The notes beneath the pieces were generated by a model. The model was not told the origin of the DNA. It did not search any database and saw nothing but the letters and a program-made list of their open reading frames with translations. From the IMG/VR virus record IMGVR_UViG_3300025875_000047, positions 1-46,337 of that record: a DNA stretch of 46,337 nt; one strand, 5' to 3'. Origin of the DNA: a virus. Lineage: Duplodnaviria; Caudoviricetes. How positions within the stretch are numbered: position 1 is the stretch's first letter; every line of letters starts with the position of its first letter. Of this stretch, positions 1-46,279 are shown piece by piece. Both the position numbers and the translations under genes were made by a program.

Positions 1-127
1 AATTACGTCATCAAGAGGTAAAGAAGCGTAAGCTTCAGCAATTGCGTCCGACCAAGGATCATAAGTCATGTTTAACTATTCCATTTGCTACCCGCGTAGG
101 TAAACCGGCGCGAACCATAGTTAGTGT
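1..127. repeat. Terminal direct repeat, copy 1 (127 bp), probably assembly overlap of a circular contig
   Basis: Identical to 46211-46337; tail genes read continuously across the junction. Confidence 0.95.
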
Positions 128-4381: not shown

Positions 4382-4384
4382 TAT

Positions 4385-4879
4385 TCAATCTCCCGTAACG
4401 ATAGACGGATAAACTTCGTTGACGAATTCGTCAACTACACGACTAAGCCTTATGCCTAGCGAGATGCCGATCATATTAAAATAGTCGTAAACAGATTGAT
4501 CGATATTTGTTATACTTCGAATTAACAAATCCATAGACACATTCGTAACATTAAACCCGGCTTCAGTAACCGACGGGCTACCTTCAGGCGCAAACATTAC
4601 TAAATTAATTATATATTTGTTGCCTCTTTGTATTGGCATATAAAACCATAGCGAGCCGTCTTTGATGACATTCGCGTAAAAGAATTCAAATAGCGAAAGT
4701 TCGTCGTAAGACATTCTTACTATCTGCGACTGCGGCGATATTATTTTTGTAAAACGACGGCGAACACGTTTTGCGCCGTTATCCATGTCCGTTATGGCGC
4801 GGCCCTGACCGTCTGAAAGCGACATATTGCCGCTTCCTTGATTGGCTAGGTAGTTAATATTAGGCCATAGGGGTATCAT
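4385..4879 (-). CDS. Minor tail / distal tail protein
   Basis: 164 aa directly after the tape measure gene; TDMDNGAKRVRRRF and DGSLWFYMPI resemble lambda gpM-like/Dit proteins. Confidence 0.75.
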   Translation of the reverse strand: MIPLWPNINYLANQGSGNMSLSDGQGRAITDMDNGAKRVRRRFTKIISPQSQIVRMSYDELSLFEFFYANVIKDGSLWFYMPIQRGNKYIINLVMFAPEGSPSVTEAGFNVTNVSMDLLIRSITNIDQSVYDYFNMIGISLGIRLSRVVDEFVNEVYPSIVTGD

Positions 4880-29336: not shown

Positions 29337-31733
29337 TCACCTGAACGCCCCGATATTCGCGACTATGAACATGCGGGCTGAAGCACCATATTTCGAATGC
29401 GCCTGCGCCTTGGGAAGTTCGCGAAGTTCGTCAGCGTCTAGAAGGAACTGCGATGCACGCTTGATTGCATTCGTTGCGCCTAGGCGATCAGTGCGGAACG
29501 ATGCGACGGCCATCAAGCGCCGGGTCAGCGCTGATAGCGGGATCACGCCGTCGCGCGCCATATCGGGCGATACGCCGTACTTCAGCCCGTTAGGATCGCC
29601 GGTCAGCCAAAGCGTAATGATCTTCTTCATATCCTTGATTTGCGCAGCTTCAGACGCGCCAAGCGCACCGGAACCGACTTCGCCAGCTTCGAAACGTGCC
29701 AGCAAGTTTTCAGCGTCAGCGACGACAAGCGACGTTGCCCATTGTGCCGTATCGAAGTCGATCACGGGCGCGTAAGGATCGTTCCCAACAGCGACAAGTG
29801 CGGCAATCTTCATCGCCTTAACGTGGGCACGGTTCCATAGCTGGCGGTTCGTTTCGCGTGCCTGCGGATCATTGATCGACGTATCGCAATAGTCGTTAAA
29901 CTGATCGAAGAGCGCTTCAGCGTCCTTCGTCATATGCACGTTCTGCGCCCCGCCCTTTTGCATGATTTCGAGGCAATGTCCGATGATAATCTTCATCTTA
30001 TCGACAAGGCCGAAGGTCGGTTGCGCGTTGACGTGCGACTTGTTCAGCGGCGGGCGCTTGCCCCGGTATTCGATCGTATGGAAGCGGGGCAACAGCCCTT
30101 CGCTAATCATATGTTCGTCTAGCACTTCATAGAAGCGTTCAGGCGTACTTTCGCCGATTAGGGTAAATGCGGGGCTTGCGATAGGATCGGTGTTCTTTTC
30201 CTTGTCGCTATACGCCATCGGATTAAGGACGTTGCCGTTTCCCGACTTGCCATAAAGGTCGAGTAGCACGCGCTTCAGGCCGATTTCGGATGACGATGCG
30301 TTCGGCTGCGCCATGCTCTTCAGCCGAAGACCGAACTCGCCTGTAACCGATACGAAGCACGGCGATTTCGCCAGCCATTTAAGAAGCGCAGCATCGGAGC
30401 GGATTTCAGCCGGGCCGACGAACTGGCGTGCCGATGCGATCCCGTTTTCTATCGTGCCGACGACTTGCTTCATCAACTTCGAGATACCCGCGTTGATGGC
30501 TTCTTTGCCCGTGCCCGTTGGCGCGATCAGCAAGACGTATTGGTTTAGGCCCGTGCCGCTGACGTTATACGCGCGGCCGATGATGCCTGCGGTTAGGCCA
30601 ATCGCGCCGACTAGGGCGCACTCGCGAACAGGACGTGGCGCTGCGGCATAGATGAATTCGGCTATCTCTCCGACAAGACCCGGCGGGAATAGCTTGACAG
30701 GATCGAATGCGGGCGTCATCGGTGGCGGCGCTGCTAGAGCCTTGCCCGGTTCAACGGCCGGGGCGGCGGGTGACGGTCCTTCCTCACTTGCCGTCCCGAT
30801 GTTTGCCGGGTCGCTCGCAATCATCGCTTCAAACTGCGCCTTCAGCATCGCGAGCCCTTCGATATCGACGGGCGGAAGCTGGCGATCGAACGCCTTGTTA
30901 ATCATGTATTCGCGATAATTGCGACGCTTCGCCTTATCGCGAGCGCCAAGCGGCGACGCTAAGAAGATACGTTCAATCTGTTCGCGGTTTTGCGTGTAGA
31001 ATGCGACGATATCAACGAACGCGAAGTCGGCTTCAGATTGCGACGAATAGATCGAACTCCAATCGCCTTGAAGAAGCGTGCGGAACTTGTCACCGTTCGC
31101 AGCTTCGAGCGCTCGCATGATGATCGTGTTATCGTCGGCCGTTTCAGGCGCATTGCCTTCGTGACGATAGATCGCCGCAGGCCCGCCCATTTGTGCCCAC
31201 AATAGATGATACAGTTCGCCGCGCTCTTCGATAGCGCCTTCGCGATAGACGTTGCCCGTCATCGTCATGAAGCGCTCTTGCGTATAGACTTCGATCGCGC
31301 TGCGCTTGCGGCCATTGGCGACAGGCGGCGTGTTGACGATCAAGTGAAGCCCGGTGCCGCTTGGGCTCCATTCGGTATAGGTGGCGAATTCGCTGAAGAC
31401 GCGCTGTTGCCGCTCGAATATCTCTTGCGGGTTGGGATACTTGAATGTGCCGTTCGCGTCAGCTTGCCAAGCGTTGTCAAGATCGATGAAGCCGAACGGG
31501 TCTTCGCGGGTCAAGACGAAGCCGATCCCGGCTAGTTCACCTTGCGCACCTTCATACGCCTGAACAGCCTGATCGAACGTGCCCCAAGTGCCCCGGTTCG
31601 TAACTGACGCATGGCCGCGAAATAGCGGCGAATAGGGAACCTTCGTCGGCTTGCCCCCGTCAGTCTCTTCGAACTTCCACACTACCCATTGCGGATAGTC
31701 CCGCATTTCGGCGGGAATGCGATCGAATGTCAC
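29337..31733 (-). CDS. Primase-polymerase (AEP, NrS-1-like) fused to a P-loop helicase-like domain
   Basis: QWVVW, KVPYSP, FIDLD, SPSGTGLH, IEVY; SQSEADF helical-bundle motif; Walker A APTGTGKE; GTG start overlapping the upstream stop. Confidence 0.9.
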   Translation of the reverse strand: MTFDRIPAEMRDYPQWVVWKFEETDGGKPTKVPYSPLFRGHASVTNRGTWGTFDQAVQAYEGAQGELAGIGFVLTREDPFGFIDLDNAWQADANGTFKYPNPQEIFERQQRVFSEFATYTEWSPSGTGLHLIVNTPPVANGRKRSAIEVYTQERFMTMTGNVYREGAIEERGELYHLLWAQMGGPAAIYRHEGNAPETADDNTIIMRALEAANGDKFRTLLQGDWSSIYSSQSEADFAFVDIVAFYTQNREQIERIFLASPLGARDKAKRRNYREYMINKAFDRQLPPVDIEGLAMLKAQFEAMIASDPANIGTASEEGPSPAAPAVEPGKALAAPPPMTPAFDPVKLFPPGLVGEIAEFIYAAAPRPVRECALVGAIGLTAGIIGRAYNVSGTGLNQYVLLIAPTGTGKEAINAGISKLMKQVVGTIENGIASARQFVGPAEIRSDAALLKWLAKSPCFVSVTGEFGLRLKSMAQPNASSSEIGLKRVLLDLYGKSGNGNVLNPMAYSDKEKNTDPIASPAFTLIGESTPERFYEVLDEHMISEGLLPRFHTIEYRGKRPPLNKSHVNAQPTFGLVDKMKIIIGHCLEIMQKGGAQNVHMTKDAEALFDQFNDYCDTSINDPQARETNRQLWNRAHVKAMKIAALVAVGNDPYAPVIDFDTAQWATSLVVADAENLLARFEAGEVGSGALGASEAAQIKDMKKIITLWLTGDPNGLKYGVSPDMARDGVIPLSALTRRLMAVASFRTDRLGATNAIKRASQFLLDADELRELPKAQAHSKYGASARMFIVANIGAFR

Positions 31734-31924
31734 GCAACAACTTCCAAACTGCGGAGATACGCGCAAAGCTTTTCAACTTGAATGACGCCCGGATTAGGCA
31801 TCAAACCTCGATGAAAGCGGGACAGCCATGCGTGCGATATGCCGCAACCTTCGCTGACTTCTTTCAATGTCGCGGGGCCGCAGCGGCGCGCAAGGCGCTC
31901 GCGTGTCTCTTCGAGCAAGGTCAT
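31730..31924 (-). CDS. Cro-like helix-turn-helix regulator
   Basis: TLKEVSEGCGISHAWLSRF...NPGV..VEKL. Confidence 0.85.
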   Translation of the reverse strand: MTLLEETRERLARRCGPATLKEVSEGCGISHAWLSRFHRGLMPNPGVIQVEKLCAYLRSLEVVA

Positions 31925-32646: not shown

Positions 32647-33423
32647 ATGGCTTGGCCGACTAAACAAGTGAAGATCGGTGATGCGGTTCTTTATCGTGGT
32701 GATTGCTGCGAAGTTCTAAAGACGATCGATTCGGTTGATCTTGTAGTTACAAGTCCACCCTATAACTTAGGAGCGATGCCGTGGAAGCCGCTAGGTAACT
32801 GGAAACCCGGCAACATCGCAGGCGCGGGCGGTGGCGCGAAATGGAAACTCGGCCCTAATTCCGGCAACGGCGTAGCTTACGGGCACCATTCGGACGCGAT
32901 GCCTTGGGCTGAATACGTTAAATGGCAACGGGAAGTCATTTTGCTGCTATGGCAACGGCTTTCCGAAACTGGCGCAATCTTTCTCAACCATAAGGCTCGC
33001 GTTGTCGGCTCAAAATTGTGGATGCCAACTGAATTGTTGCCCGAAGAAGTTGAATTACGCCAAATCATAACTTGGGCTCGGCCGGGAGGGTTGAATTACA
33101 ATCCTGTTGCATTCATGCCGACAAGCGAATGGATAATGCTCATAGCGAAGTCAGCTTTTCGCTTGAAGTCGCGTGGCGTTTCGGGCTTGGGCGATGTTTG
33201 GGTAATGAAACCGGACCGAAGCAATAAGCACCCCGCTCCCTTTCCAGTTGAATTGCCGATGAAAGCTATCGAAGCAACAAATGACGGCGTAGTCTGTGAC
33301 CCGTTCATGGGTTCGGGTACGACGGCAATCGCTGCAATTCGGAGCGGAAGACGATTTGTCGGTATAGAAGTTGATCCGCGCCATTTCGATATGGCTTGTG
33401 ATCGCATTAAAGCGGAGCAATAA
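32647..33423 (+). CDS. DNA amino-methyltransferase (beta class, probably m4C)
   Basis: VVTSPPY, HPAPFP and DPFMGSGTT motifs. Confidence 0.93.
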   Translation: MAWPTKQVKIGDAVLYRGDCCEVLKTIDSVDLVVTSPPYNLGAMPWKPLGNWKPGNIAGAGGGAKWKLGPNSGNGVAYGHHSDAMPWAEYVKWQREVILLLWQRLSETGAIFLNHKARVVGSKLWMPTELLPEEVELRQIITWARPGGLNYNPVAFMPTSEWIMLIAKSAFRLKSRGVSGLGDVWVMKPDRSNKHPAPFPVELPMKAIEATNDGVVCDPFMGSGTTAIAAIRSGRRFVGIEVDPRHFDMACDRIKAEQ

Positions 33424-33426
33424 CGA

Positions 33427-34125
33427 ATGGCCGTTCAAGTCGTCATGACAAATCAAGTCAGCCAAAAGGCGGGCGTGAAGTGTCTTGTATATGGCAAGTC
33501 GGGCATGGGGAAGACGCGGCTGATCGCCAGCGCGCCCCGGCCCTTCGTCATTTCGGCCGAACGTGGGCTTTTGTCGCTGCGGCAATTCAACATTCCCGTT
33601 ATTCAGGTTCGGACGATCGGCGAACTTCGCGAAGCATATGAATTTGTGCTGAAGCCTGCCAATCGTCGCAATATCGGCACGTTGGCGCTTGACAGCGGGT
33701 CCGAAATTGCCGAAGTTTGCCTTGCGGAAGAGAAAAAGAAGAACCGCGATCCTCGCAAGGCTTACGGCGAAATGGGCGATATCCTTGTTCAAGCATTTCG
33801 CGACTTCCGCGATATCGACGGAATGAACGTCGTCTTTCTCGCGAAGAACGAAACCGTCACCGATGGCACGACGGGCGCATTGCTTAATCAGCCGTCGTTT
33901 CCGGGGAAGCAATTGGCGCAGGCTGCGCCGTACTTCTTCGATGAAGTATTTCAGCTTAATCAGTTTCATGACGCGGAAGGCAAAAAGCTTTACGCGCTCC
34001 GAACTTCCCCTGACCCGCAAAACGTGGCGAAGGATCGAAGCGGCATACTTGCCGAATGGGAAAACGCCGACCCCGCAACAGGTGGCGGATTGACCAATAT
34101 GTTTAACCGAATGTTGCAGGGGTAA
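33427..34125 (+). CDS. Sak4-like AAA ATPase / annealing recombinase
   Basis: YGKSGMGKT, SAERG, LDSGSE, AKDRSG; adjacent to the SSB gene. Confidence 0.85.
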   Translation: MAVQVVMTNQVSQKAGVKCLVYGKSGMGKTRLIASAPRPFVISAERGLLSLRQFNIPVIQVRTIGELREAYEFVLKPANRRNIGTLALDSGSEIAEVCLAEEKKKNRDPRKAYGEMGDILVQAFRDFRDIDGMNVVFLAKNETVTDGTTGALLNQPSFPGKQLAQAAPYFFDEVFQLNQFHDAEGKKLYALRTSPDPQNVAKDRSGILAEWENADPATGGGLTNMFNRMLQG

Positions 34126-34130
34126 CGAAT

Positions 34131-34874
34131 ATGGTAGCCTATTCATTCAATCCGGCGCAGTTCGCGCCGTCCTACGGCGGCGGTGACAGCTTGGGGCCGG
34201 GGCGTCACCAGGTCGTCATCACGAAGCACGTTCTTCAGCCCACGAAGGATGGTCAGAACGGCTTCATCGCACTGACGCTGACAGCGATCGACGGGCCGCA
34301 GAAAGGCGCGTCGAAGACTGACCGGCTGAACGTTCACCATTCGAACCCGGATACGGTTCGCATCGCGAATTCGCAGCTTTCGGCATACTGCGCCGTCACC
34401 GGGACCGGCGCGTTCACCGATCTTGAACAGCTTCATAACAAGCCGTTCGTGGTCGAAATCGCTCCGCAGCCGGGAAGCGACAAATACACCGACGTTACCG
34501 CACTTTTCACGATGGACGGTCTTTCGGTGCAAGACGCGGCGCAGCGCGGGCCGCAGCGCGGTGGCGGCAACGCCCCGGCCGGGTTCGGCGCATCCGGCAA
34601 CATGCCGCAGGGCGGTCAGCCGCAGGGCGGCGGCTTCGGTGGTGGCGCTCCGCAGGGCGGCGGTGCCCCGGCTGGCGGCGGGTGGTCGGCGGCTCCGGGC
34701 GCTGACACGGGCGCAGGGCAGGCGCAGGGCGGCGCTCCGGCCGGTGGCGGCGGTTGGGGCGGTGCTGGCGGGGCTCCCGCTGGCGGTGGCGCTCCGGCGG
34801 GCGGCGGCTGGCAACAGGGCGGCGCCCCGGCTGGCGGTGCCCCGGCGGCTGGAGGTTGGGGTCAGCGCGCATGA
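34131..34874 (+). CDS. ssb: Single-stranded DNA-binding protein (DUF669-like) with a Gly-rich tail
   Basis: DRLNVHHSNPDTVRIA...LHNKPF domain; low-complexity C-terminus; follows the Sak4-like gene. Confidence 0.75.
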   Translation: MVAYSFNPAQFAPSYGGGDSLGPGRHQVVITKHVLQPTKDGQNGFIALTLTAIDGPQKGASKTDRLNVHHSNPDTVRIANSQLSAYCAVTGTGAFTDLEQLHNKPFVVEIAPQPGSDKYTDVTALFTMDGLSVQDAAQRGPQRGGGNAPAGFGASGNMPQGGQPQGGGFGGGAPQGGGAPAGGGWSAAPGADTGAGQAQGGAPAGGGGWGGAGGAPAGGGAPAGGGWQQGGAPAGGAPAAGGWGQRA

Positions 34875-34880
34875 CGGATA

Positions 34881-34905
34881 CCGGGGGTTATTGCGTAACC
34901 CCCGG
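34881..34905. repeat. Perfect 10-bp inverted repeat overlapping a putative promoter of the HNH gene
   Basis: CCGGGGGTTA-TTGCG-TAACCCCCGG. Confidence 0.75.
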
Positions 34906-34926
34906 CTATTCTGCTACTGATCGCCT

Positions 34927-35268
34927 ATGAATGACTTTCCCGTTTGTCCCACCGAAGGTTGTAACAATAAGCGCCAAGGGCGTGGCAACGGGAAAGTTCG
35001 TAAATGGTGTTCAACTTGCTCGCGTAAGAAATGGCCGCCGAACAAACAAAGTTTTAGCGGAACTAAGCGTGCAATTGAATATCGGCGTAACAAAGAGCCG
35101 TATTGTTCGATATGTGGTCCAACAGTTGAATATCATAGCTGTCAACTCGACGTTGACCATATCGACGGAAATCATAAGAATAACAGATTAGATAATCTGC
35201 AAACCTTATGCGCTAATTGTCATCGGATGAAGACATTCAAAGAAAGACAATTAGCGGCTATTCGGTGA
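34927..35268 (+). CDS. HNH endonuclease
   Basis: CSICG, LDVDHIDGNHKNNRLDNLQTLCANCH; AT-rich relative to its neighbours. Confidence 0.92.
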   Translation: MNDFPVCPTEGCNNKRQGRGNGKVRKWCSTCSRKKWPPNKQSFSGTKRAIEYRRNKEPYCSICGPTVEYHSCQLDVDHIDGNHKNNRLDNLQTLCANCHRMKTFKERQLAAIR

Positions 35269-35332
35269 ACTGCGAAGACGGCTGATCTAAGCGTTGCGGC
35301 CATCGACTACAGTTTCGATAGCTTCGCAGTTC
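35267..35332 (+). ncRNA. Candidate structured RNA (three-way junction) in the leader of the nuclease gene
   Basis: 11-bp perfect closing stem enclosing two 5-bp hairpins. Confidence 0.4.
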
Positions 35333-35354
35333 TCCCAATAGTGAACCGGGCATC

Positions 35355-36227
35355 ATGTTTGATCTAACAACCGAAGCCGGTCGCATAGCGCTGGCGAAGC
35401 GCATATCTGACGACGTTGAAGCCGCGAGTGAAGAACACTTCGCCGAAGGCTTCCGTCGTCATTTAGGCGCGTCAATCATCGGGCACGAATGCGCCCGCTA
35501 TTGCTTTAATAACTTTCGTTGGGTTCTTCGCGAGAAGGTCGGCGGGCGTATGCGCCGCTTGTGGAACCGGGGGCATCTTGAAGAACCCCGCATGATCGAA
35601 TGGCTTCGGCTGATCGGCTTCACTATCCACGAATTCGACGCCGAAACCGATAAGCAATATCGGATCGAAGGCGCACAAGGGCACTTCGGCGGTTCCCTTG
35701 ATAGCATCGCCTTCGCCCCGGAGCGCTACGGCTTAGGCAACATTCCGCTTCTTCCTGAATACAAGACGCATAACGACAAGTCATTCAAAGACTTGAAGAA
35801 GCATGGAATGCGCAAGTCAAAGCCGCAGCACTTTAAGCAAATGTCTTCGTATGGTCGCGCCTACGGGATCGCTTACGGGTTATATGCCGCAGTCAATAAG
35901 AACGATGACGAACTTTATTACGAAATCGTTGCACTCGACTACGGGCAGGCCGACGACTTGTTTCGTAAAGCCGATTATATCATCTTCAATCAAGACCCGC
36001 CGTCGAAGATCAGCAATACGCCAACCTTCTATAAGTGCAAAATGTGTTCGTTCGCGGGTATCTGCCATCTAGGCGACAGCCTTGAAAGGAATTGCCGCAG
36101 TTGCATCAATGCCCGGCCAATCGAAAGCAAGGAATGGTGGTGCGAACTCCATAGCCCTGAAGCTAACGCGCCGATCCCCGGCGACGTGATACCGCACGGC
36201 TGCGCAAGTTGGAAGCCGATCGTCTAA
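35355..36227 (+). CDS. Cas4-like PD-(D/E)xK exonuclease with Fe-S-type cysteines
   Basis: HLGASIIGHECAR, GSLD, EYKT, QMSSY and CKMCSFAGIC. Confidence 0.88.
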   Translation: MFDLTTEAGRIALAKRISDDVEAASEEHFAEGFRRHLGASIIGHECARYCFNNFRWVLREKVGGRMRRLWNRGHLEEPRMIEWLRLIGFTIHEFDAETDKQYRIEGAQGHFGGSLDSIAFAPERYGLGNIPLLPEYKTHNDKSFKDLKKHGMRKSKPQHFKQMSSYGRAYGIAYGLYAAVNKNDDELYYEIVALDYGQADDLFRKADYIIFNQDPPSKISNTPTFYKCKMCSFAGICHLGDSLERNCRSCINARPIESKEWWCELHSPEANAPIPGDVIPHGCASWKPIV

Positions 36228-36228
36228 C

Positions 36229-37998
36229 ATGGCTATTCTTCAGCCCCGATGGTATCAGGAAGCGGCGGTCAAAGCCGTATTCGACTATCTTGCGAACACT
36301 GGCGGAATAGCTGAAGACGGTCGGCCGATAAAGGCGAACCCGCTTGTCGCTATGCCCACGGGAACCGGCAAGTCTCTTGTAATATCGGGGATCATTTGGG
36401 TTGCGATCATGCTCCGCAACATGACGAACCTTCGTGTCGTCATCGCGACGCATGACAAACGCTTGATCGAACAAAACGCGAAGACGCTGTTAAAGCTTTG
36501 GCCGCAGGCCCCGGTCGGTATTGTATCGGCCGGGTTGAAGCGCAAAGACCTAAACGCGCAACTGATCTTCGGCGGGATCAAGTCGCTTATCGGAAAGCTG
36601 ATCGACAACAGCGGTAAGCCCCAATGGGTTGACTTGCTGATCGTTGATGAAGCGCACCTAATAAACAACAAAGCCGAAGGGCAGTATTGCGAGTTTATCC
36701 TAGAGTGTCTGAAGACGAACCCTAATCTTCGCGTCGTCGGCCTAACCGCAACGTGGTTTCGGCTTGGGCAGGGCACGCTAACACAAGGGCAAATCTTCAC
36801 CGATATCTGTTACAACATATGCGATATCGACGGCTTCGCCCGACTTCTAGCTGAAGGCTTCTTAGCGCCTCTAATCACGCCGTCTGACCCGGCGCGCAAG
36901 ATCGCGATCGACCTATCAACCGTGGGTATGGGGGCCGATGGCGACTTCAGGCAAGGCGCGCTTCAGAACGCCACCGATCGCGCCGATATTAACTATGCTG
37001 CGCTTCGTGAAATCGTTCAGTATGGTGAAAACCGCCGTTCATGGATGATCTTCGGCGCTGGCGTCGAACACGTCGAACATCTTCAGCAAATGCTATCGGG
37101 AGCGTTTGGCGTGCCATGCGTCGCCGTTCACTCAAAGATGAAAGACGCTGAAGTTGACGCCGCATTCGGTGCCTTTAAGCGGGGCGAAGTGCGAGCGCTG
37201 ATTAACAAGGATATGGCAACAACCGGCTTCGATCATCCCCCCGTTGACTTAATCGGCGATCTAGGCGCGACTTGCTCCGCAGCGAAGCACGTTCAAAAGA
37301 ACGGCCGGGCAACACGTCCTTATGATTGTCGCAACCCCGATCAATATATTCCGGGCTTTGAGTTCGTTAAAGAAAACGCAATCGTTTTAGACTTCGTTGG
37401 AAACATCGAACGTTGCGGGCCGATCAACGATCCGATCATTCCGCGAGCGCCGGGCGATAAGAAGACAGGGGTTCGCGATGCTCCGATCAAGATTTGTGCC
37501 CATTGCGGTAACTATAATCATTCGTCGGTAAGGTTCTGTCACGTCTGCGGCGCTGAATTCGATATGCGTTCGAGTATCACGCAACACGCCAGCACGGCCG
37601 AAATCATCAAGCTTGATGATAGCGCAGTTCCGCAAGTCGAAATCATTCCAGTCGATCGGGTGAGTTATACGCGCCATGTTACGAAAGCGACGAAACGGGC
37701 TCTATCGACCGACGGGCGCAGTTGGACGAACAACGATCCTTTTATCATCAAGGCAAGTTATTATTGCGGCCTGAAGACGTATTATGAATTCGTTACCGTC
37801 GAAGCGCCTGAAGGAACTCGCGAACAGAACTTCATGCGCAAGATCGGCCGTGATTGGTTTCGCGCTCGCTATCAAGGCGAACCGCCGGAAACGAACGAAG
37901 AAGTATTGCAGTATTCATCTTATCTGCGGAGCCCTAGAGCGCTCCGGGTTTGGGTGAATAAGAAGCCCTATCCTGAAGTCAAGGGAGCCGAATTCTAA
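36229..37998 (+). CDS. SF2 DEAH-box helicase (RadD/YejH-like) with a zinc finger
   Basis: PTGTGKS, DEAH, GLTAT, TTGFD, QKNGRATR and CAHC...CHVC. Confidence 0.93.
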   Translation: MAILQPRWYQEAAVKAVFDYLANTGGIAEDGRPIKANPLVAMPTGTGKSLVISGIIWVAIMLRNMTNLRVVIATHDKRLIEQNAKTLLKLWPQAPVGIVSAGLKRKDLNAQLIFGGIKSLIGKLIDNSGKPQWVDLLIVDEAHLINNKAEGQYCEFILECLKTNPNLRVVGLTATWFRLGQGTLTQGQIFTDICYNICDIDGFARLLAEGFLAPLITPSDPARKIAIDLSTVGMGADGDFRQGALQNATDRADINYAALREIVQYGENRRSWMIFGAGVEHVEHLQQMLSGAFGVPCVAVHSKMKDAEVDAAFGAFKRGEVRALINKDMATTGFDHPPVDLIGDLGATCSAAKHVQKNGRATRPYDCRNPDQYIPGFEFVKENAIVLDFVGNIERCGPINDPIIPRAPGDKKTGVRDAPIKICAHCGNYNHSSVRFCHVCGAEFDMRSSITQHASTAEIIKLDDSAVPQVEIIPVDRVSYTRHVTKATKRALSTDGRSWTNNDPFIIKASYYCGLKTYYEFVTVEAPEGTREQNFMRKIGRDWFRARYQGEPPETNEEVLQYSSYLRSPRALRVWVNKKPYPEVKGAEF

Positions 37999-38242: not shown

Positions 38243-38503
38243 ATGACAAGCGCAGTCGCCTTCATCCTTTGGAATATCAGCGGGAAGAACCCCGAAATCG
38301 TCAGTCGTGGAACGAATGCGATCGTTCATGGCGATGAAGTCCTATACCTAGGATGCACGCCCGATCGAAGCGCTTACTTTTGGTTAGGCTCCGGCGAAGC
38401 CCGATGGCTGACCGAAGGACAGCTTGCCGAAGCGGGCTTCATCCTTCATGACTATCGCGATCCCCAAGGATTGAAGAGGCGTTTCGATGGCGAACCCGCG
38501 TGA
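38243..38503 (+). CDS. Hypothetical protein
   Basis: ATG 38243 just after the upstream stop codon. Confidence 0.6.
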   Translation: MTSAVAFILWNISGKNPEIVSRGTNAIVHGDEVLYLGCTPDRSAYFWLGSGEARWLTEGQLAEAGFILHDYRDPQGLKRRFDGEPA

Positions 38504-39512
38504 CAAAAAGAAGAAGGCTTCGAGCGCGACCGCCAAGCTTGGCGCAGCGCTCGAATTCGTTCTTCCCGCCTTCAAAGACAAGGGCGCACCGTATCAGCAA
38601 TTTTGCCGTATCAGCAATCAGCAAATCGTCGCATTTGACGGGGTGATTGCTCTAGGGCATCCGGTTGACGAAGACATTCAGATATGCCCACACTTGGGGC
38701 AGTTCAGCGACGCGATTAAGCGGGCGGGCGATACGCTGAATTTGACCGAACTCGCGAGCGGGTCGCTTTCGGTCAAAGGCGACAAGCTTCGAGCGGTGAT
38801 CCCGTGTCTTCGCGATCAGTCCGAAATGCCGCCAGTCATGCCCGATATCAACTGCGCCGTGATTGATGATCGCATTCGCGAAGGTATGGCTGCGGTGACG
38901 ACTGTTATCAAGGAAGGCGATCAGAATACGCGATGGATCGAAACCGCTGCGCTGTTGCGCGCGAACACGATCTTCGCCACGAACGGGCACGTTTGCTTCG
39001 AGTTCTTCCACGGGATCGACCTTCCGCCGAACCTGACGATCCCCAAGGCGGCGATTACGGCGATCCTGAAGAGTGCAAAGCCGATGACGGGGTTCGGCTT
39101 CGGTCCTAAGTCAGTGACGTTCTATTTCGAAGACGGCGCTTGGCTGCGCTCGCAAATGTTCACCGAAGAGTACCCCGATATTGATCGGCTGCTAGACAAA
39201 GAAATAGGTCAGCGCTTGCCCGGCGATCTTCCTGATTGCCCGCCTGATCTATTCGAAGCCGTCGAAGCGGTGAAGAAGTTCGCAGCAACGTCGGCCGTGT
39301 ATCTAGGGCCGGGCGTCGTGCGCTCGCATCCTGCGGAAGACGTAGGCGCAGACTACCCGGTCGAAGGGTTGACCGGCTTTCACGTCTTCAACGCCGAATA
39401 CATGAAGATGATCGCACCGCACGCGAAGAGGATCGACCTAAACCGATCGGAGCAATCGGCGATCTTTTACGGCGACAACGTTCGCGGTGTCATTATGAAG
39501 ATGCGCGGCTAA
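38487..39512 (+). CDS. DNA sliding clamp (Pol III beta-like)
   Basis: 341 aa; ATNGH, IPK, EYPD and C-terminal VIMKMR motifs; adjacent to the polymerase gene. Confidence 0.78.
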   Translation: MANPRDKKKKASSATAKLGAALEFVLPAFKDKGAPYQQFCRISNQQIVAFDGVIALGHPVDEDIQICPHLGQFSDAIKRAGDTLNLTELASGSLSVKGDKLRAVIPCLRDQSEMPPVMPDINCAVIDDRIREGMAAVTTVIKEGDQNTRWIETAALLRANTIFATNGHVCFEFFHGIDLPPNLTIPKAAITAILKSAKPMTGFGFGPKSVTFYFEDGAWLRSQMFTEEYPDIDRLLDKEIGQRLPGDLPDCPPDLFEAVEAVKKFAATSAVYLGPGVVRSHPAEDVGADYPVEGLTGFHVFNAEYMKMIAPHAKRIDLNRSEQSAIFYGDNVRGVIMKMRG

Positions 39513-41524
39513 TGTTCTTCGATGACGCCGACATAGTTCCGAAGAAGCTTGCGACGCTCCGGCTTCCGCCACCGATCCCGCATACGGGTTGGACGCCGCC
39601 CGCCAGCTTTCCGAACCTATCCGCCGCGACTGTTATTGCAGTCGATACGGAAACCAAAGACCCGGAGTTGACCGAACAGGGGCCGGGTTGGGCGCGTCAC
39701 CGGGGGCATATCGTCGGCGTATCGCTGGCGGCGAAGGACGCGCGCGGCAACTCCGGCAAATGGTACTTTCCGGTTAGGCATGAGGTGCAACCGGAGTTGA
39801 ACCTAGACCCGGCAAAGGTCTTCCCATTCCTGAAGACGGTGCTAGAAAACCCGCATACGCCGAAGGCCGGCGCTAATCTAATGTACGATATCGGTTGGCT
39901 GACCGAAGAGGACATTTACGTTGCCGGGCCGCTATATGACGTTCAGTTCGGCGAAGCGTTGTTGTGCGAGGATAGCGTTGCACTCGAAACCCTAGGTCGC
40001 AAATATCTAGGGATCGGCAAGACGACGAACTTGCTATACGATTGGCTTGGTCGCGCCTACCCCGACGTTTCAGCGACGAAGCGTCGTTCGAATATCTATC
40101 GGGCTCCCCCGTCGCTTGTCGGCCCTTACGCTGAAGACGACGCGGCGCTTCCGATTGAAATCATGGAACGCCAGCTTCGCGAAATCGAGGCGCAGGAACT
40201 AGGCGAAGTCTTCCGGCTAGAGAATGAACTAATCCCGCTGCTAGTTCGAATGCGGCTCGAAGGCGTGTCGGTTGACGTACCCGTTGCTGAAGCCTTGCAC
40301 AAGGAACTAGGCGGCGACATTCAACAGCTATATCAGCGGATCAATCACGAATTCGGCCCGCTCGAAAAGTCGTCGTCGGGGCATGTGGGCAAGCTGCTAG
40401 ATCATCTAGGCGTCAGCTATCCGCGCGGTGCTGAAGGTCGGCCGTCGATCGAAAAGGAATGGCTTGCGGGGCTTGAACACCCGGTCGGCGAACTGTTGCT
40501 TGATGTTCGCGAACATGAAAAAATGCGATCGACGTTCGTTGAAAGCTACTTCCTGAATAAAAACATTGGCGGCAAGATATATCCGCAGTTTCACCCGCTG
40601 AAGGGCGAAAGTAACGGAACTATAGTCGGCCGCTTTGCGTCGTCTGATCCGAACTTTCAGAATATCCCAAGTCGAACAAAGCTAGGCAAGCGAGTTCGCC
40701 GGATTTGCATTCCTGATAGCGGTCATCATGAATGGCGCAAGTATGACTATTCGCAAATTCACTATCGCATTCTAGCGCACTACGCCGTCGGTCCCGGTTC
40801 GAATGAACTTCGCGCCGCCTACTGCGATGATCCGAACATGGATTATCACGATAAGGTATATGACAACGTTTGCCCGTTGTTGGGTTGGGATGCGAACGAC
40901 GAAGCGCAGCGGAAGTTTCGTCGTCGGCCGGTGAAGAACGTGAACTTCGGTCTTCTTTACGGTCAATCTGAAAAGTCGCTGAAGTATAAGACGGCCGCGT
41001 ATTTCGGTGAAGGTTTCGGCGACGAAGAGGCGAAGGGGTTTTTCGAAGCCTACTTCAAGGGTGCACCATATGTGAAGCCCACAATGCAAGCGATCGGCCG
41101 CGAAGTGCAAGCCTTCGGGTATGTGCGAACGCTGCTAGGTCGCCGGGTGCGCTTCGATCAATGGGAGCCCGCCGACTTCGGTTCGCGCGGAATGCCCTTG
41201 CCCTATCATGCTGCGCTTGCGGAGTACGGGTCTAACATTCGCCGCGCTTTCGAGTATCGCGGCGTGAACTACAAGTTTCAGGGCTCCGAACCGGATATCA
41301 TGAAGACGGGCATGATTAAGTGTCTGCGTTCCGGTGTGTTCGACTACACCGGAGTTCCGCGACTAACAGTGCATGACGAAAACGACTATAGCGTTCGTGA
41401 CAACAGCCCGGCGACGAAGGAAGCCTTCGAGTTCATTCAACGTACTATGGAAGGCGCTATTCAGCTTCGTATTCCGGTTCGGGTTGATATGTCGAAGGGG
41501 CCGAATTGGGGCGAAGCGGACTAG
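39512..41524 (+). CDS. polA: Family A DNA polymerase with a 3'-5' exonuclease domain
   Basis: Exo motifs DTET, NLMYD, YAEDD; GRFASSDPNFQNIP; motif A DYSQIHYR; motif B RRPVKNVNFGLLYG; motif C VHDE. Confidence 0.95.
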   Translation: MFFDDADIVPKKLATLRLPPPIPHTGWTPPASFPNLSAATVIAVDTETKDPELTEQGPGWARHRGHIVGVSLAAKDARGNSGKWYFPVRHEVQPELNLDPAKVFPFLKTVLENPHTPKAGANLMYDIGWLTEEDIYVAGPLYDVQFGEALLCEDSVALETLGRKYLGIGKTTNLLYDWLGRAYPDVSATKRRSNIYRAPPSLVGPYAEDDAALPIEIMERQLREIEAQELGEVFRLENELIPLLVRMRLEGVSVDVPVAEALHKELGGDIQQLYQRINHEFGPLEKSSSGHVGKLLDHLGVSYPRGAEGRPSIEKEWLAGLEHPVGELLLDVREHEKMRSTFVESYFLNKNIGGKIYPQFHPLKGESNGTIVGRFASSDPNFQNIPSRTKLGKRVRRICIPDSGHHEWRKYDYSQIHYRILAHYAVGPGSNELRAAYCDDPNMDYHDKVYDNVCPLLGWDANDEAQRKFRRRPVKNVNFGLLYGQSEKSLKYKTAAYFGEGFGDEEAKGFFEAYFKGAPYVKPTMQAIGREVQAFGYVRTLLGRRVRFDQWEPADFGSRGMPLPYHAALAEYGSNIRRAFEYRGVNYKFQGSEPDIMKTGMIKCLRSGVFDYTGVPRLTVHDENDYSVRDNSPATKEAFEFIQRTMEGAIQLRIPVRVDMSKGPNWGEAD

Positions 41525-42060
41525 CTTTCGATTACTAGGACGTTCGCCGTTGCGCCGACTAGCAGCGTAACAAGTCCGGTCACTAGTGCTTGCGTCTGAA
41601 GCTTTACCTGAACTTGATCCTTCGTCGCCGATCCCGCAACAACGGTTGACATTGTAGGACCGGAAAGAACCGCAGTCGTTGCCGGTAGGGGAATGACAAC
41701 CGGCGCAGCCGCGAACTTGGCTGAAGAGTAGTTAATCGTCGCGATCCCTTGCGCGTTGCTTACTGCCGAAAAAGGCATGACGCGCTTGATCGCATTGAAG
41801 TTGAATGCGTCGGCCTTAGCGGTGACGTATCCTGCGGTTCCGATATAGACGCCGACGGCGGGCTTAGTTCCAGTGCCGCCGCTCCAATCGATGACTTTGA
41901 TAAGCGTGCGGGTGCCGTCCAACTCTCCGGCAAGGGCTGGCGTCCATCCTGAAGTTCCGTTCGAACCCGGCGAACCATCTTTCAGCATAACAGGATTAAG
42001 CGAACCGTCGGCGTTGCGAGTAGCGGCGACAGTATTGCGGATCGTCGTTGTTCCGGCCAT
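41521..42060 (-). CDS. Tail fibre-associated protein
   Basis: 179 aa, beta-rich; last gene of the tail operon. Confidence 0.6.
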   Translation of the reverse strand: MAGTTTIRNTVAATRNADGSLNPVMLKDGSPGSNGTSGWTPALAGELDGTRTLIKVIDWSGGTGTKPAVGVYIGTAGYVTAKADAFNFNAIKRVMPFSAVSNAQGIATINYSSAKFAAAPVVIPLPATTAVLSGPTMSTVVAGSATKDQVQVKLQTQALVTGLVTLLVGATANVLVIES

Positions 42061-42638
42061 TAGCTAATCACCGCGCTATCGGGGCCGACGACTGGCGACG
42101 CGAGCCCGCTATTGCTGAAGGATCGAACGAAATAGTAATAGGTTCCCGTTGCACCCGGCGCATCGTTCACCGTCTGAACTGCGCCAAGCCCGCCGACGAT
42201 ATCGCCGCCTATCTGAACAGCGTCGGCGAAGTTCGTCGTATTGCTCCGATAAAGCCGCGTCCAACCGTAGTTGTTATCGATCGGATTTCGCCAAGTTACG
42301 TTAGACGATCCGACGCCATCGGCTACGCTGAAGCGTGTCGGCGAAGTCGGCGCTTGTTCAACGTCGCTATAGGTGTATTCGACAATTTCGCTGCGCCCGG
42401 AATTGTTTAGGCACGTTACCCGAAGCTTGAACTTCGGCCAAGGCCCGCCAGCCGCTTTGATTTCATCGGCGGTAAACAGCGTTGACGTGCCGAAGACCAT
42501 CTTCGCAAGCTTACTATTCGGCGAAGTCGTCGTCGGATTGTTGACGCTCCCGGCGGGCGCAGTCGGATCGCTAGGCGTGGGATTGCCCCCGCCGTCGCCG
42601 GGATCGCCATAGTCTTGTTCGATGATTGCCCGCGCCAT
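42060..42638 (-). CDS. Fibronectin type III-like tail protein
   Basis: PTSPTRFSV...VTWRNP...LYRS...YYYFVRSF. Confidence 0.7.
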   Translation of the reverse strand: MARAIIEQDYGDPGDGGGNPTPSDPTAPAGSVNNPTTTSPNSKLAKMVFGTSTLFTADEIKAAGGPWPKFKLRVTCLNNSGRSEIVEYTYSDVEQAPTSPTRFSVADGVGSSNVTWRNPIDNNYGWTRLYRSNTTNFADAVQIGGDIVGGLGAVQTVNDAPGATGTYYYFVRSFSNSGLASPVVGPDSAVIS

Positions 42639-42640
42639 GA

Positions 42641-45331
42641 TTAAGCCTCGACTACAATTTCGACCGCATACGCTGAAGCGTATTGGCCGGGGAACCAATC
42701 GGCGGTAACAACGCTTTGGTCGGTCGCAACCGTAACTGAAAGATCGGTGACGGCTTCAGGCACTTTGTTTTCGGGGTCGAAGTCATATTCAACATATGTC
42801 CAAGGCCCCCGAACATTGCCGATCGCCGCAGCCCGAACAATAACGTCGTTCGCTTGCGCTAAAAACGTAACCGAAGTGCCCGAGCCTTCATAGACGGTAT
42901 CGTATGAAGCCCCGTCATAGCTGTATTGCACGACGTAGGCGGTTGCCCCTCGCGACGGTGCCCACGATGCCGACAGCAGCACCGGGGAAGCGCCGCTAGA
43001 CGGATCAAGCGTCACACGAAGGCCGTCAATCGCAGGGGCGCTAGGATCGCGCCCTAGCCCGCCTATCGCAGCTTCTTCCGGGGGAACGCCTAGGTCAGCC
43101 GTGTAAACGCGCGGATCGTCGTTCACTAGCGCGATTTGCGATCGGTCAAGGCCCTGCGGAACGATCGACGTTGCGACGAACCGCTTTGCGAATATGATCG
43201 AATTGTTTTGAATGAACCGGGTTGCGATCTTGTTCGGGTCAGTGACGATGATCGGCGCAAGCGGGCCGAATTCGGCTTCAGCATCTATAAGCGCGTCTTC
43301 ATCGATAACCGCTTCGAAGTTACTTGCGCCGCGCGTAACAGCGACCGGCCCCCATTGACGATTGCGACGATCCGAAAAGATAATCGAAAATGGACCGTTC
43401 GACCAATTGCCGGGTTCAGTTAGCAGAACCGTTCGTGAAGCGGTGTCGTAAAACTCGACTTCGCCCGCGCTGCCCCATTTCGGCATATCATGTGAAACCG
43501 TAACAGCGTCGCCACGAATTAGAAGCTTGCCCTCCATTTCGGAAGTAAGCTGACCGATGATCCGGCGATATGCGTTTGACGCCGCATGGTAGATGCCTTC
43601 ACGCCAAGCTTGCGCGTAGTTCGTTGCGCCGAACAAGCTAATGCGGGTTGGTTCATCCGACGTGCTACCGTCAAGCGTACATTGAACTTCGGCCTGTTTC
43701 CAAGTGCGTTCATCGATATATTCGACAATAACGTCATCGGGGCTATCCGCCCGGTAAAGAAGATGCGTTGTGCCGAACGATCCCTTCGTCATGTTAGCAG
43801 ACGTGAAGACGCCTTTCGGGATCGTGCGCGGTTCGTCACGAACAAACGTCATCACGCCTGCGATCAACATCGGTTGCGTTCGCCCGACTAGAAGAAGCGC
43901 CGCGAGTGCATCCCAAAACGTTTGTTTCGTGTCGAATACGCCGTTGAACGTGTCGTTGCGGGCGAACCAAGTCGCGTCTAGCTGAAGAAGCTTATCAAGG
44001 TCAATCATGCTATCTTGACGGCCTTCGCCGTAAATAGGATTGCGAAGCATATCAGCCGCTGCCCACGCTATAGATCGGGTCGGCTGCGGGTCGCTCCAAC
44101 CTTCGCCGTTCCATACGGGAAGCTTCGCAATCTGAATGACGTTGAATAGTCGTGATGACTGTTGCGAAAGTTGGTTCGTGGCCTTGATCTTCACCGCCAA
44201 AAGTGAAACGTCGGGATAGACGTTCGTTGACGGTTGGAAGCCGCGAAGCCCGGTCCATTGCACCTTATCCGAAACCGTCGTGTCGTCACCCGCGTCTGCG
44301 GTGACGCGCGTTACCCGGCCCTGATAGCGACTGTCGGGAACGACAAACGTCTTCGTATAGCGTTGCGCCGTTGACGTGCGGGCGGTAAATACAGCGATTT
44401 CAGCAACAACCCAAGGCCCCGCCGCCGTGCCGGTATTGTCAATCTCCTGATACTCGATAGTCACCGATACACTTCGGCTTCCTAGCTTGCCCTTCTTATC
44501 GGCCTTGAATAGCCCGGCGCTGAATACGAAGTCGTATGCCAGCCGATTAACGACGGTTCCGGCGGCGTTGACGATGTATCCGCCGATAGTCGCACCCGAT
44601 AGAAGATCGGCACCGGCAACTTCGGCGGAGGTCTGAACCGCCGCCGGGAATAGCGTTACCGGCTGACCCGGTTCGATAAACTGAAGTTCAACGTCTTCGA
44701 AGCTATCCGTAAAGCCGGTAGCTTTGCGCCAAAGGTCCGTATCGCCAATGCGAACGGTTTGTGTGTCATAGAAGCCGACGCCGCGAACGAACAACTGAAA
44801 TAGATATTGATCGTTGCCTTCGTATGTCGTGTAGGGTTGTGCGGCGAAATCCATGAACATATTATGCAATCCGTATCCGCGCGGGATCGGGTTCATAAGT
44901 CGGGCTTGATTGCCCTGCGCCTGAAGCGAATACGTCGGGCTTGCTTCGGCCCCTTCGGCATTGGCGACCTTCGGCTGAAGAACAAGGTTCAGGATCGCAC
45001 CGACTGCGGCCCCGGCGGCAAGCCCTAGCGCGATATTGCCGCCGGTAAGGACGGTGACGCCGATCGTTACGGCGATCTGCGCAACAACACCGATGATCGA
45101 CTTTAGTCCGCCGTTCTGCGGAAGGATGACGAAGGCCCCGCGATCGAAGCATGTTAGCGGGCGATCCCAATCGGCCCGGCGAACAGGCACTTCGTTGCAT
45201 ACGAAGATAACCGGAACCGATGAAGGAAACGCCTGTTCATCGAAGTATTCACGAATAGTCTTGCCGGGCGTGAACGGCGCATGTCCGATTACACTTAGCG
45301 GGGTTTCAACCGCGATCCCCAATCCATTCAT
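42641..45331 (-). CDS. Tail tip / host-specificity protein (lambda J-like) with FN3 domains
   Basis: About 900 aa; QGNQARLMNPIPRGYG, TRSIAWA, FNGVFD and GATNYAQAWREG; likely ATG at 45331. Confidence 0.9.
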   Translation of the reverse strand: MNGLGIAVETPLSVIGHAPFTPGKTIREYFDEQAFPSSVPVIFVCNEVPVRRADWDRPLTCFDRGAFVILPQNGGLKSIIGVVAQIAVTIGVTVLTGGNIALGLAAGAAVGAILNLVLQPKVANAEGAEASPTYSLQAQGNQARLMNPIPRGYGLHNMFMDFAAQPYTTYEGNDQYLFQLFVRGVGFYDTQTVRIGDTDLWRKATGFTDSFEDVELQFIEPGQPVTLFPAAVQTSAEVAGADLLSGATIGGYIVNAAGTVVNRLAYDFVFSAGLFKADKKGKLGSRSVSVTIEYQEIDNTGTAAGPWVVAEIAVFTARTSTAQRYTKTFVVPDSRYQGRVTRVTADAGDDTTVSDKVQWTGLRGFQPSTNVYPDVSLLAVKIKATNQLSQQSSRLFNVIQIAKLPVWNGEGWSDPQPTRSIAWAAADMLRNPIYGEGRQDSMIDLDKLLQLDATWFARNDTFNGVFDTKQTFWDALAALLLVGRTQPMLIAGVMTFVRDEPRTIPKGVFTSANMTKGSFGTTHLLYRADSPDDVIVEYIDERTWKQAEVQCTLDGSTSDEPTRISLFGATNYAQAWREGIYHAASNAYRRIIGQLTSEMEGKLLIRGDAVTVSHDMPKWGSAGEVEFYDTASRTVLLTEPGNWSNGPFSIIFSDRRNRQWGPVAVTRGASNFEAVIDEDALIDAEAEFGPLAPIIVTDPNKIATRFIQNNSIIFAKRFVATSIVPQGLDRSQIALVNDDPRVYTADLGVPPEEAAIGGLGRDPSAPAIDGLRVTLDPSSGASPVLLSASWAPSRGATAYVVQYSYDGASYDTVYEGSGTSVTFLAQANDVIVRAAAIGNVRGPWTYVEYDFDPENKVPEAVTDLSVTVATDQSVVTADWFPGQYASAYAVEIVVEA

Positions 45332-45725
45332 GAAATACGAACCTTCGCCAGCCTGACGCACGAAGCGCAAGGATTGTGTCAAATGTCACACCAACGCCCG
45401 CCGTCGCATGACTGATACCGCCACCGTCTATATCGAGGAACACCCCGATATGAAAGGGCCGCGAATTGTGGGCAAGTTCGACAAGCCCGCCATGAACCGG
45501 CGCTTCGATTTGACGCCAGTTCTTACGGGCCGGGTGCGACTTGACGAATTCGATGATTTCGCGCGTTGTTTCGGGCGGCTTGGCAATCGTGCCGATTTCG
45601 CGGTTGAACAGCTTACGTTGAAGCACTTCAGCCCAGCCCCAACAGTCGAACGCATCCGGCCCGGCTGCGCCCTTAACCCAAGGCTTTCCCAAGTTGGCGA
45701 CAATGAATTCAGCGTCAAGCGTCAT
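45306..45725 (-). CDS. NlpC/P60 tail tip protein (lambda K-like)
   Basis: GKPW...FDCWG...HIGV...HA. Confidence 0.88.
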   Translation of the reverse strand: MTLDAEFIVANLGKPWVKGAAGPDAFDCWGWAEVLQRKLFNREIGTIAKPPETTREIIEFVKSHPARKNWRQIEAPVHGGLVELAHNSRPFHIGVFLDIDGGGISHATAGVGVTFDTILALRASGWRRFVFHEWIGDRG

Positions 45726-46279
45726 GCTACAAGCCCCGGATATTCGACAGGTCGATATACCTTAGCGGGAAAGTTGCGATTGACAAGATCGGCGAAGCTG
45801 GCGGTGCCGGTCATTTGCGTTAGGTTCGATGAAATGCTTGTCATCGAAAGACCGCCTAGAATGAACTGCGGCGTATCCGGGTCGCTTGCGAGATATTCCC
45901 GATAAGTGATATCGAGTGTCGCGCGCACCCCGATAAGTGCGTCAAGCTGCGGCGTAATCAGATATGCGACGTTATCGACTGATACTGTTACCGACGGAAC
46001 TTGACCTTCCTGTTGATCGGGCAGGCTGAAGCCGAAGCCGCAGGCGATGAAGTCAACCGACGCGCCGGGGTCTAGTGGCGCGTCGGCTTCAAGCTTCAGT
46101 TTATGCCCGAACACGATATCACCGCCGTCTTCGGTCAATATGTCGCCTAGATCGGCAACGATTCGGATAGGTTTAACAAGCGAAGGATGACGCAATTCCA
46201 GTGTTGATAGAATTACGTCATCAAGAGGTAAAGAAGCGTAAGCTTCAGCAATTGCGTCCGACCAAGGATCATAAGTCAT
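45722..46279 (-). CDS. Minor tail protein (DUF1833-like)
   Basis: AEAYAS, TLELRHPS, YREYLASD and EYPGL; follows the tailspike gene across the circular junction. Confidence 0.82.
   Translation of the reverse strand: MTYDPWSDAIAEAYASLPLDDVILSTLELRHPSLVKPIRIVADLGDILTEDGGDIVFGHKLKLEADAPLDPGASVDFIACGFGFSLPDQQEGQVPSVTVSVDNVAYLITPQLDALIGVRATLDITYREYLASDPDTPQFILGGLSMTSISSNLTQMTGTASFADLVNRNFPAKVYRPVEYPGLVA

Follow-up and report, generated by a model that had tools for sequence, protein, structure and literature searches.

A phage family A DNA polymerase with histidine at the steric gate and a coupled glutamate in motif 6

In the Klenow fragment, residue E710 holds the dNTP in position, keeps out rNTPs and makes a bond with Y766; this steric-gate glutamate is described as universally conserved (PMC3715850). 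In the same paper E710Q is a mutator that incorporates nucleotides at a low rate, and E710A is a mutator too. Three further papers describe the surroundings of the gate: in KlenTaq the dNTP, E615, N750 and Q754 share one water (PMC6125688), in Bst Q797, R615, E658 and D830 are close together (PMC10520511), and in Pol gamma helix Q has an Asp, five residues beyond the Gln, that meets the loop with the R668 equivalent (PMC3241644). The gate Glu has been removed by engineering in Klenow E710Q/E710A and in Taq/Stoffel E615G variants, as it is naturally missing from the phage enzyme reported here, and in SFM19 (I614E/E615G) a Glu was also moved to a nearby position (PMC4854868). The engineered mutants, however, use Gly/Ala or an uncompensated Gln, and a helix-Q Glu is absent from all variants listed. 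Our literature search found no description of a natural exchange in which a His or Gln gate is paired with a helix-Q Glu; subscription papers were mostly outside its reach, and the logos or supplements of Czernecki 2023 may display the variant. Term searches within PMC4882331, PMC9069017 and PMC6302109 yielded nothing on the gate/motif-6 pair.

The closest described relatives are the PolA proteins of Sphingomonas phages Birtae (OR225224; 79.7%) and Kimi (OR225222; 66.0%) and of Paracoccus phage vB_PmaS-R3 (NC_026608; 63.7%). These three cultured lytic phages carry the His/Glu pair, with the same His/Glu/Pro signature and the same clamp-helicase-Cas4 module as the genome studied here, and the available portions of their descriptions mention neither an active-site change nor a polymerase assay (PMC10385605, PMC4641407). 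The sister enzymes of VpKK5, Me-ZS1, Baskent_P4_1, BP63 and ZCSE2 (43-59% identity) differ in having the gate Glu and a small residue at the position of our residue 593, as do twelve more distant named phages (43-50%). These sisters and phiJL001 gp28 share the combined exonuclease and polymerase architecture and a Phe at the Klenow 762 position, and motif A of the near sisters ends in YR. The phiJL001 protein, a member of cluster #11 of Czernecki 2023, has a Glu gate and a small residue at 593; at 29% identity, it falls on the same branch with SH-aLRT values of 81-93, below the threshold for strong support. Of the features given for cluster #11 (PMC10201439), which also include two insertions in common with phiVC8 DpoZ, our protein has the phage origin, an intact exonuclease DxE (D45/E47) and Leu/Phe at B3 (F479).

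The window, by which we mean the whole stretch of DNA analyzed, is a complete virus record of 46,337 bases with direct terminal repeats. The polymerase ORF (39512-41524, + strand) encodes 670 amino acids without an internal stop and is the only PolA match of the record, which has one PF00476 match and zero PF00136 matches, i.e., no PolB. The protein is a family A DNA polymerase with a 3'-5' exonuclease (PF01612) and a polymerase domain, the latter scoring 196.8 bits against the PF00476 cut-off of 34.3. Its AlphaFold2 model (pLDDT 91.4) has the Klenow fold, with Klenow itself as the best fold match (1KFS; TMq 0.76; Foldseek E 3e-33), and fold searches returned the general PolA fold and nothing more specific. 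The fold, the catalytic Asp pair and the R668, F762, Y766 and Q849 positions are shared with the Klenow, Bst and KlenTaq large fragments. Compared with Klenow, the phage enzyme has E710 replaced by His, A852 by Glu and A853 by Pro, and lacks the 5'-3' exonuclease. The cellular Pol I model scored 247 bits against a cut-off of 720 and left the N-terminal third unmatched, which places the protein outside that group.

Profile alignment to Klenow (8OO6) pairs D412 with D705, H417 with E710, Q590 with Q849, E593 with A852 and P594 with A853. Klenow numbers were counted by hand off the printed alignment, and Taq was aligned as well; the naming of helices L and Q, like the residue equivalences among Klenow, Taq, Bst and Pol gamma, partly follows common usage. 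An earlier note, made from the DNA alone, had read a His at the steric gate and an altered motif 6, with the catalytic Asp residues, motif B and the exonuclease motifs intact, and the ORF and both alignments agree with it on each of these points. In detail, motif A (DYSQIHYR; 40745-40768, +) starts with D412 and has H417 (CAC, 40760-40762) instead of Glu at the gate position (Klenow E710, Taq E615), at the start of helix L. Motif 6 (QGSEPD; 41279-41296, +) lies in helix Q and contains E593 (GAA, 41288-41290) and P594 (CCG, 41291-41293). In the AlphaFold2 model, the corresponding helices span residues 416-424 on the gate side and 583-607, unbroken, on the motif 6 side. The catalytic set of family A is complete: besides D412 it comprises a canonical motif B (R471, K475, F479 and Y483, the last at the Klenow Y766 position; 40922-40963, +) and H621-D622 of motif C. 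Exonuclease motifs I-III (D45, E47, D126, Y206 and D210; 39644-40141, +) are likewise intact, and R374 at the Klenow R668 position (40631-40633, +) is invariant in 143/143 viral representatives. Motif C (VHDEND; 41369-41386, +) retains H621-D622-E623, followed by N624 (AAC, 41381-41383) at a variable position. The same note had counted this Asn among the active-site changes; its reading of the motif stands, but N624 is rejected as part of the signature. The residue is Asn in only 5 and Leu in 94 of 117 His-type relatives, so the motif C change is ordinary variation or noise.

The His/Glu pair is conserved. His417 and Glu593 occur together in 117 of the 120 top clusters, the query included, and the other three have Glu and Ala; with the query excluded, 116 of the 119 nearest clusters are His/Glu. 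The His codon is CAC in Birtae and CAT in Kimi and R3. The possibility that the pair is a sequencing error or belongs to a dead gene is negligible: the first, already thought unlikely in the earlier note, is ruled out by the 116 non-self clusters and the two His codons, and the gene is the sole PolA of a complete genome, with lytic isolates carrying the same pair. Across the 117 His-type relatives, D45, E47, D126, Y206, D210, D412, F479, D622 and E623 are invariant, and 116 of them retain Y483. Pro594 is found in 114; the other three have Ala594 and branch off before the His/Glu/Pro forms, so judged by branching order Pro594 is apparently a secondary, later addition within the His clade. As a compensator it is ruled out: the three His/Glu/Ala proteins exist, and the Gln types carry Ala or Gly. 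A search for loci with the exact peptide returned five loci only. Some polymerases of the His clade (P0009; L028, L189 and L389) contain a large insertion of ~280 amino acids, and P0009 has a precomputed match to PF14890, presumably an intein family.

Gate and motif 6 residues were compared in several samples. In the family set (n = 235, with P0009 and its long insertion left out, as also from the full-length FastTree) there were 117 His/Glu, one Gln/Glu and 117 Glu/small proteins, and no further state. A motif-blind test took the best 150 representatives at 50% identity from a profile search; among the 148 readable ones, Glu593 occurs in 12/12 proteins with a His or Gln gate and in 0/136 with a Glu gate. 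With 12 of 148 motif-blind representatives lacking it, the gate Glu is not universal in family A. We also scanned IMG/VR with a single motif A pattern in which the gate residue alone was varied, and matched an estimated ~1400 stretches for Glu (119 fetched), 39 for His and 33 for Gln. Among the readable picks, Glu593 was found with the Gln gate in 25/25, with the His gate in 33/33 and with the Glu gate in 0/71. Conversely, the 54 loci picked by motif 6 alone included 48 PolA proteins, 47 of them readable, with gate His in 31, Gln in 16 and Glu in none. The contigs of these IMG/VR scans overlap and the counts are not independent. In metagenomes, 120 of ~260 motif A matches were fetched (117 PolA, 72 readable), and all 72 have an acid at motif 6 (70 Glu, 2 Asp). 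Sequences too short to cover both motifs were dropped (48/119 in the Glu set, 42/120 in the bacterial set described below and 45/117 in the metagenome set), as were matches that were non-PolA or could not be parsed (6/54, 7/33 and 4/39). Across 143 viral representatives, column 593 is the only one that sets the His-gate and Gln-gate proteins together apart from the Glu-gate ones (score 1.0; the next column scored 0.36), and with a Glu gate this position is nearly always small (Ala, Gly or Ser). The only natural gate replacements seen in the viral and metagenome samples are His and Gln.

The gate and motif 6 changes are strictly coupled in every sample. This complete coupling, with the recurrence in independent lineages described below, strongly supports the suggestion of the earlier note that E593 may make up for the loss of the gate Glu; the covariation it had proposed to look for in phage PolA alignments exists for His and Glu593, and its Pro component proved secondary. 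It had also allowed that the variant might already be a common, characterized clade signature; the signature is indeed common, but we found no characterization of it. One more regularity, that a Gln gate always comes with loss of the Tyr at the Y766 position, held in 27/27 viral representatives, yet the Tyr is kept in 36 of 61 readable metagenome Gln/Glu proteins and the rule was dropped. Two metagenome loci (L423 and L426) have a His gate with Asp at the motif 6 site and Leu for the conserved Gln.

The exchange extends to bacterial-type enzymes. The metagenome set includes full-length bacterial-type Pol I, of which 6/6 tested pass the NCBIfam Pol I cut-offs; motif 6 Glu is combined with a Gln gate in L420:1867-4668(-), L479:1876-4659(-), L495:1867-4635(-) and L463:1843-4431(-), and with a His gate in L434:93-2747(+) and L453:542-3199(+). 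A GTDB scan for the motif 6 pattern matched an estimated ~2000 stretches (120 fetched), by title mostly from Patescibacteria and Prevotella/Segatella, and here the gate Glu is retained in 78/78 readable proteins (loci L053-L172). In Saccharibacteria-titled loci, the motif 6 Glu occurs with HDS instead of HDE in motif C in 72/75. The rule that exactly one Glu is always present is true of the viral sets and fails in bacteria, where 78/78 have both. The Glu/Glu state was never seen in viral sequences (family set, motif 6 picks or motif-blind sample). A motif 6 acid thus came with every gate-Glu loss seen, yet it does not force that loss.

Quick IQ-TREE trees (LG+G4; polymerase domain, trait columns removed; 161 and 165 rows), which have long branches and SH-aLRT support without bootstrap, place the present His clade on a single branch (SH-aLRT 98 and 97). 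The branches with strong support require at least three His/Glu and at least six Gln/Glu changes, and independent pairs on those branches agree in 6/6 cases (p = 0.031; six pairs in total). P0096 had seemed an independent origin of the His gate in the FastTree of full-length proteins, but joins the His clade in the polymerase-domain trees. Three distant His proteins also have Q590 replaced, by Ile or Val. The present clade retains Q590 and Y483 and is the minimal form of the exchange. For five queries of the Gln type, the best matches among cultured phages reached 25-55% identity, none of them close. The Gln/Glu exchange occurs in L230:1889-3862(-), L236 and L239, whose best cultured matches are Roseobacter SIO1-like phages (37-41%). 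A further Gln/Glu lineage (L259, P0280, P0285, P0298 and P0303) has the motif 6 form Q-D/S-G-E-G and mostly HDD in motif C. In L252, the Gln-gate polymerase has HDS as its motif C and lies downstream of a separate polymerase-family ORF, a possible exonuclease/polymerase split, and in L186 a separate exonuclease gene and a match to dATP/dGTP pyrophosphohydrolase lie beside the Gln/Glu polymerase (L186:667-1458(-) and L186:4674-5039(-)).

The exchange is real, conserved and repeatedly evolved and, within the literature searched, undescribed. The reading that we favor, and hold to be fairly probable, is that of a compensating swap in which a relocated carboxylate leaves an intact phage replicative polymerase with near-normal dNTP selection. 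The canonical gate Glu would have two jobs, providing bulk under the sugar C2' and a carboxylate for the R668/Q849/Y766 network. The space under C2' would be taken by His417 here and by Gln in other lineages, and Glu593, three residues or about one turn past Q590, would face the gate pocket and supply the carboxylate. The carboxylate would thus have shifted from helix L to helix Q, with the bulk retained by His. From the role of its counterpart in the Pol I literature, we infer that R374 is the partner of the relocated carboxylate. That E710Q alone is a slow mutator fits the need for a second change. A plausible route leads from Glu/Ala through Glu/Glu, as in bacterial Pol I, to His/Glu or Gln/Glu, and Pro594 would have become fixed afterwards in the His clade; the bacterial Glu/Glu proteins fit such a stepping stone, but viral sequences gave no example of it. 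Recurrence in many unrelated phage and bacterial polymerases points to a working alternative active-site design and not a leaky or broken enzyme. The residue that PMC3715850 calls universally conserved has natural substitutes in many lineages, each time together with an acid at the same second site, which makes the A852 position a candidate natural suppressor of gate-Glu loss. The exchange also separates the bulk and charge roles of the gate Glu in an experimentally testable way, and the three cultured lytic phages with the minimal His/Glu form make both virion DNA and enzyme directly accessible. Should selectivity prove normal, motif A with His or Gln is no sign of a dead or leaky polymerase; should it prove altered, these enzymes would be natural starting points for polymerases that use modified sugars.

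Against a near-neutral compensating swap, the exchange may have arisen repeatedly because a changed property was selected. It is possible, though unlikely, that the pocket has been retuned toward more ribonucleotide tolerance, lower fidelity or different dNTP affinity, selected for example at low host dNTP pools. Both Klenow mutants are mutators (PMC3715850), and Taq/Stoffel E615G variants, including I614E/E615G with its Glu shifted by one residue, accept rNTPs and 2'-modified NTPs (PMC4854868). The many origins would agree with such selection, and no ribonucleotide reductase gene was recognized among the 74 ORFs of the window. However, the engineered rNTP users have a small gate residue, whereas the natural replacements are His or Gln only, the same exchange occurs in full-length bacterial Pol I, and the proofreading motifs are invariant. 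No RNase H gene was recognized in the window or in the His-clade flanks. The genomes of R3 and of Kimi and Birtae were completed from ordinary 454/Illumina libraries, according to the sequencing details in PMC4641407 and PMC10385605, which counts against heavy substitution only. The stronger form, a second sugar-selection architecture that alters the accepted substrates, with some ribonucleotides used or copying at low dNTP and rNMP-containing virion DNA, seems to us rather improbable.

Quite doubtful is the proposal that Glu593 is merely permissive, stabilizing helix Q or the region of R374 and motif C indirectly and without touching His417, so that the gate drifts to His or Gln. The abundance of Glu/Glu Pol I in GTDB agrees with it, and the 78/78 bacterial proteins together with the Saccharibacteria pairing of the Glu with HDS indicate that the motif 6 Glu may have another role. 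The viral sets argue the other way: Glu/Glu co-occurrence is absent from them (0/136 and 0/47), as would fit a competition of two acids for the same pocket, and position 593 stays small beside a Glu gate.

Adaptation to a modified nucleotide, as in the adaptation of phiVC8 DpoZ to 2-aminoadenine, is very improbable. DpoZ (7PBK) is the top single-sequence PDB match and thereby the nearest solved phage PolA, and the viral Gln/Glu enzymes share with it the loss of the Tyr at the Y766 position, which in DpoZ is a Tyr-to-Phe change in helix O (PMC8599892). However, DpoZ keeps the gate Glu and the present clade keeps Tyr483. Against the DpoZ model (NF038380; cut-off 500), our protein scored 232, similar to the 238 of a Glu-type sister (P0100), and with Y483 kept and no purZ it falls outside that group. 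No purZ, deazaguanine or thymine-modification gene was recognized among 74 ORFs of the window, 78 of the His-clade flanks and 90 of the Gln-type flanks, in agreement with the remark in the earlier note that no nucleotide-modification genes were recognized; the exception is an N6/N4 methyltransferase in the window. As many ORFs have no family match, an as yet unrecognized modification pathway is possible. The 78 His-clade flank or genome ORFs included scattered methyltransferases, MazG-like proteins, a DEDD-type exonuclease family and one PAPS-reductase-like protein, and no gene is common to the Gln-type flanks (90 of 102 ORFs scanned).

The polymerase gene is embedded in a replication module. 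Directly upstream is a clamp-like processivity factor (38487-39512, +; phrog_947, E 2.7e-53), which is present in 36 of the 37 His-clade loci clustered. The rest of the module (33427-37998, +; Pfam and PHROG matches) encodes a Sak4-like ATPase, SSB, HNH, a Cas4-domain exonuclease and an SF2 helicase, and a primase with an NrS-1-type domain match is located on the other strand (29337-31766, -; phrog_3022, PF22763). The R3 paper (PMC4641407) reports a family B enzyme for KL1 and PA73, whose modules are homologous in other respects, a replacement that fits an interchangeable, ordinary replicase.

No tRNA genes were found in the window. The tail module (41521-46279 and, on the - strand, 72-4879) encodes a tail protein J-like protein, NlpC/P60, DUF1833 and two large proteins without a match, and most of its genes cluster with none of Birtae, Kimi and R3. 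Inside the replication module are the N6/N4 DNA methyltransferase (32647-33423, +) and the HNH endonuclease (34927-35268, +), and the Birtae module has no ORFs of these sizes at the corresponding places. At the DNA level, the replication module is 78% identical to that of Birtae.
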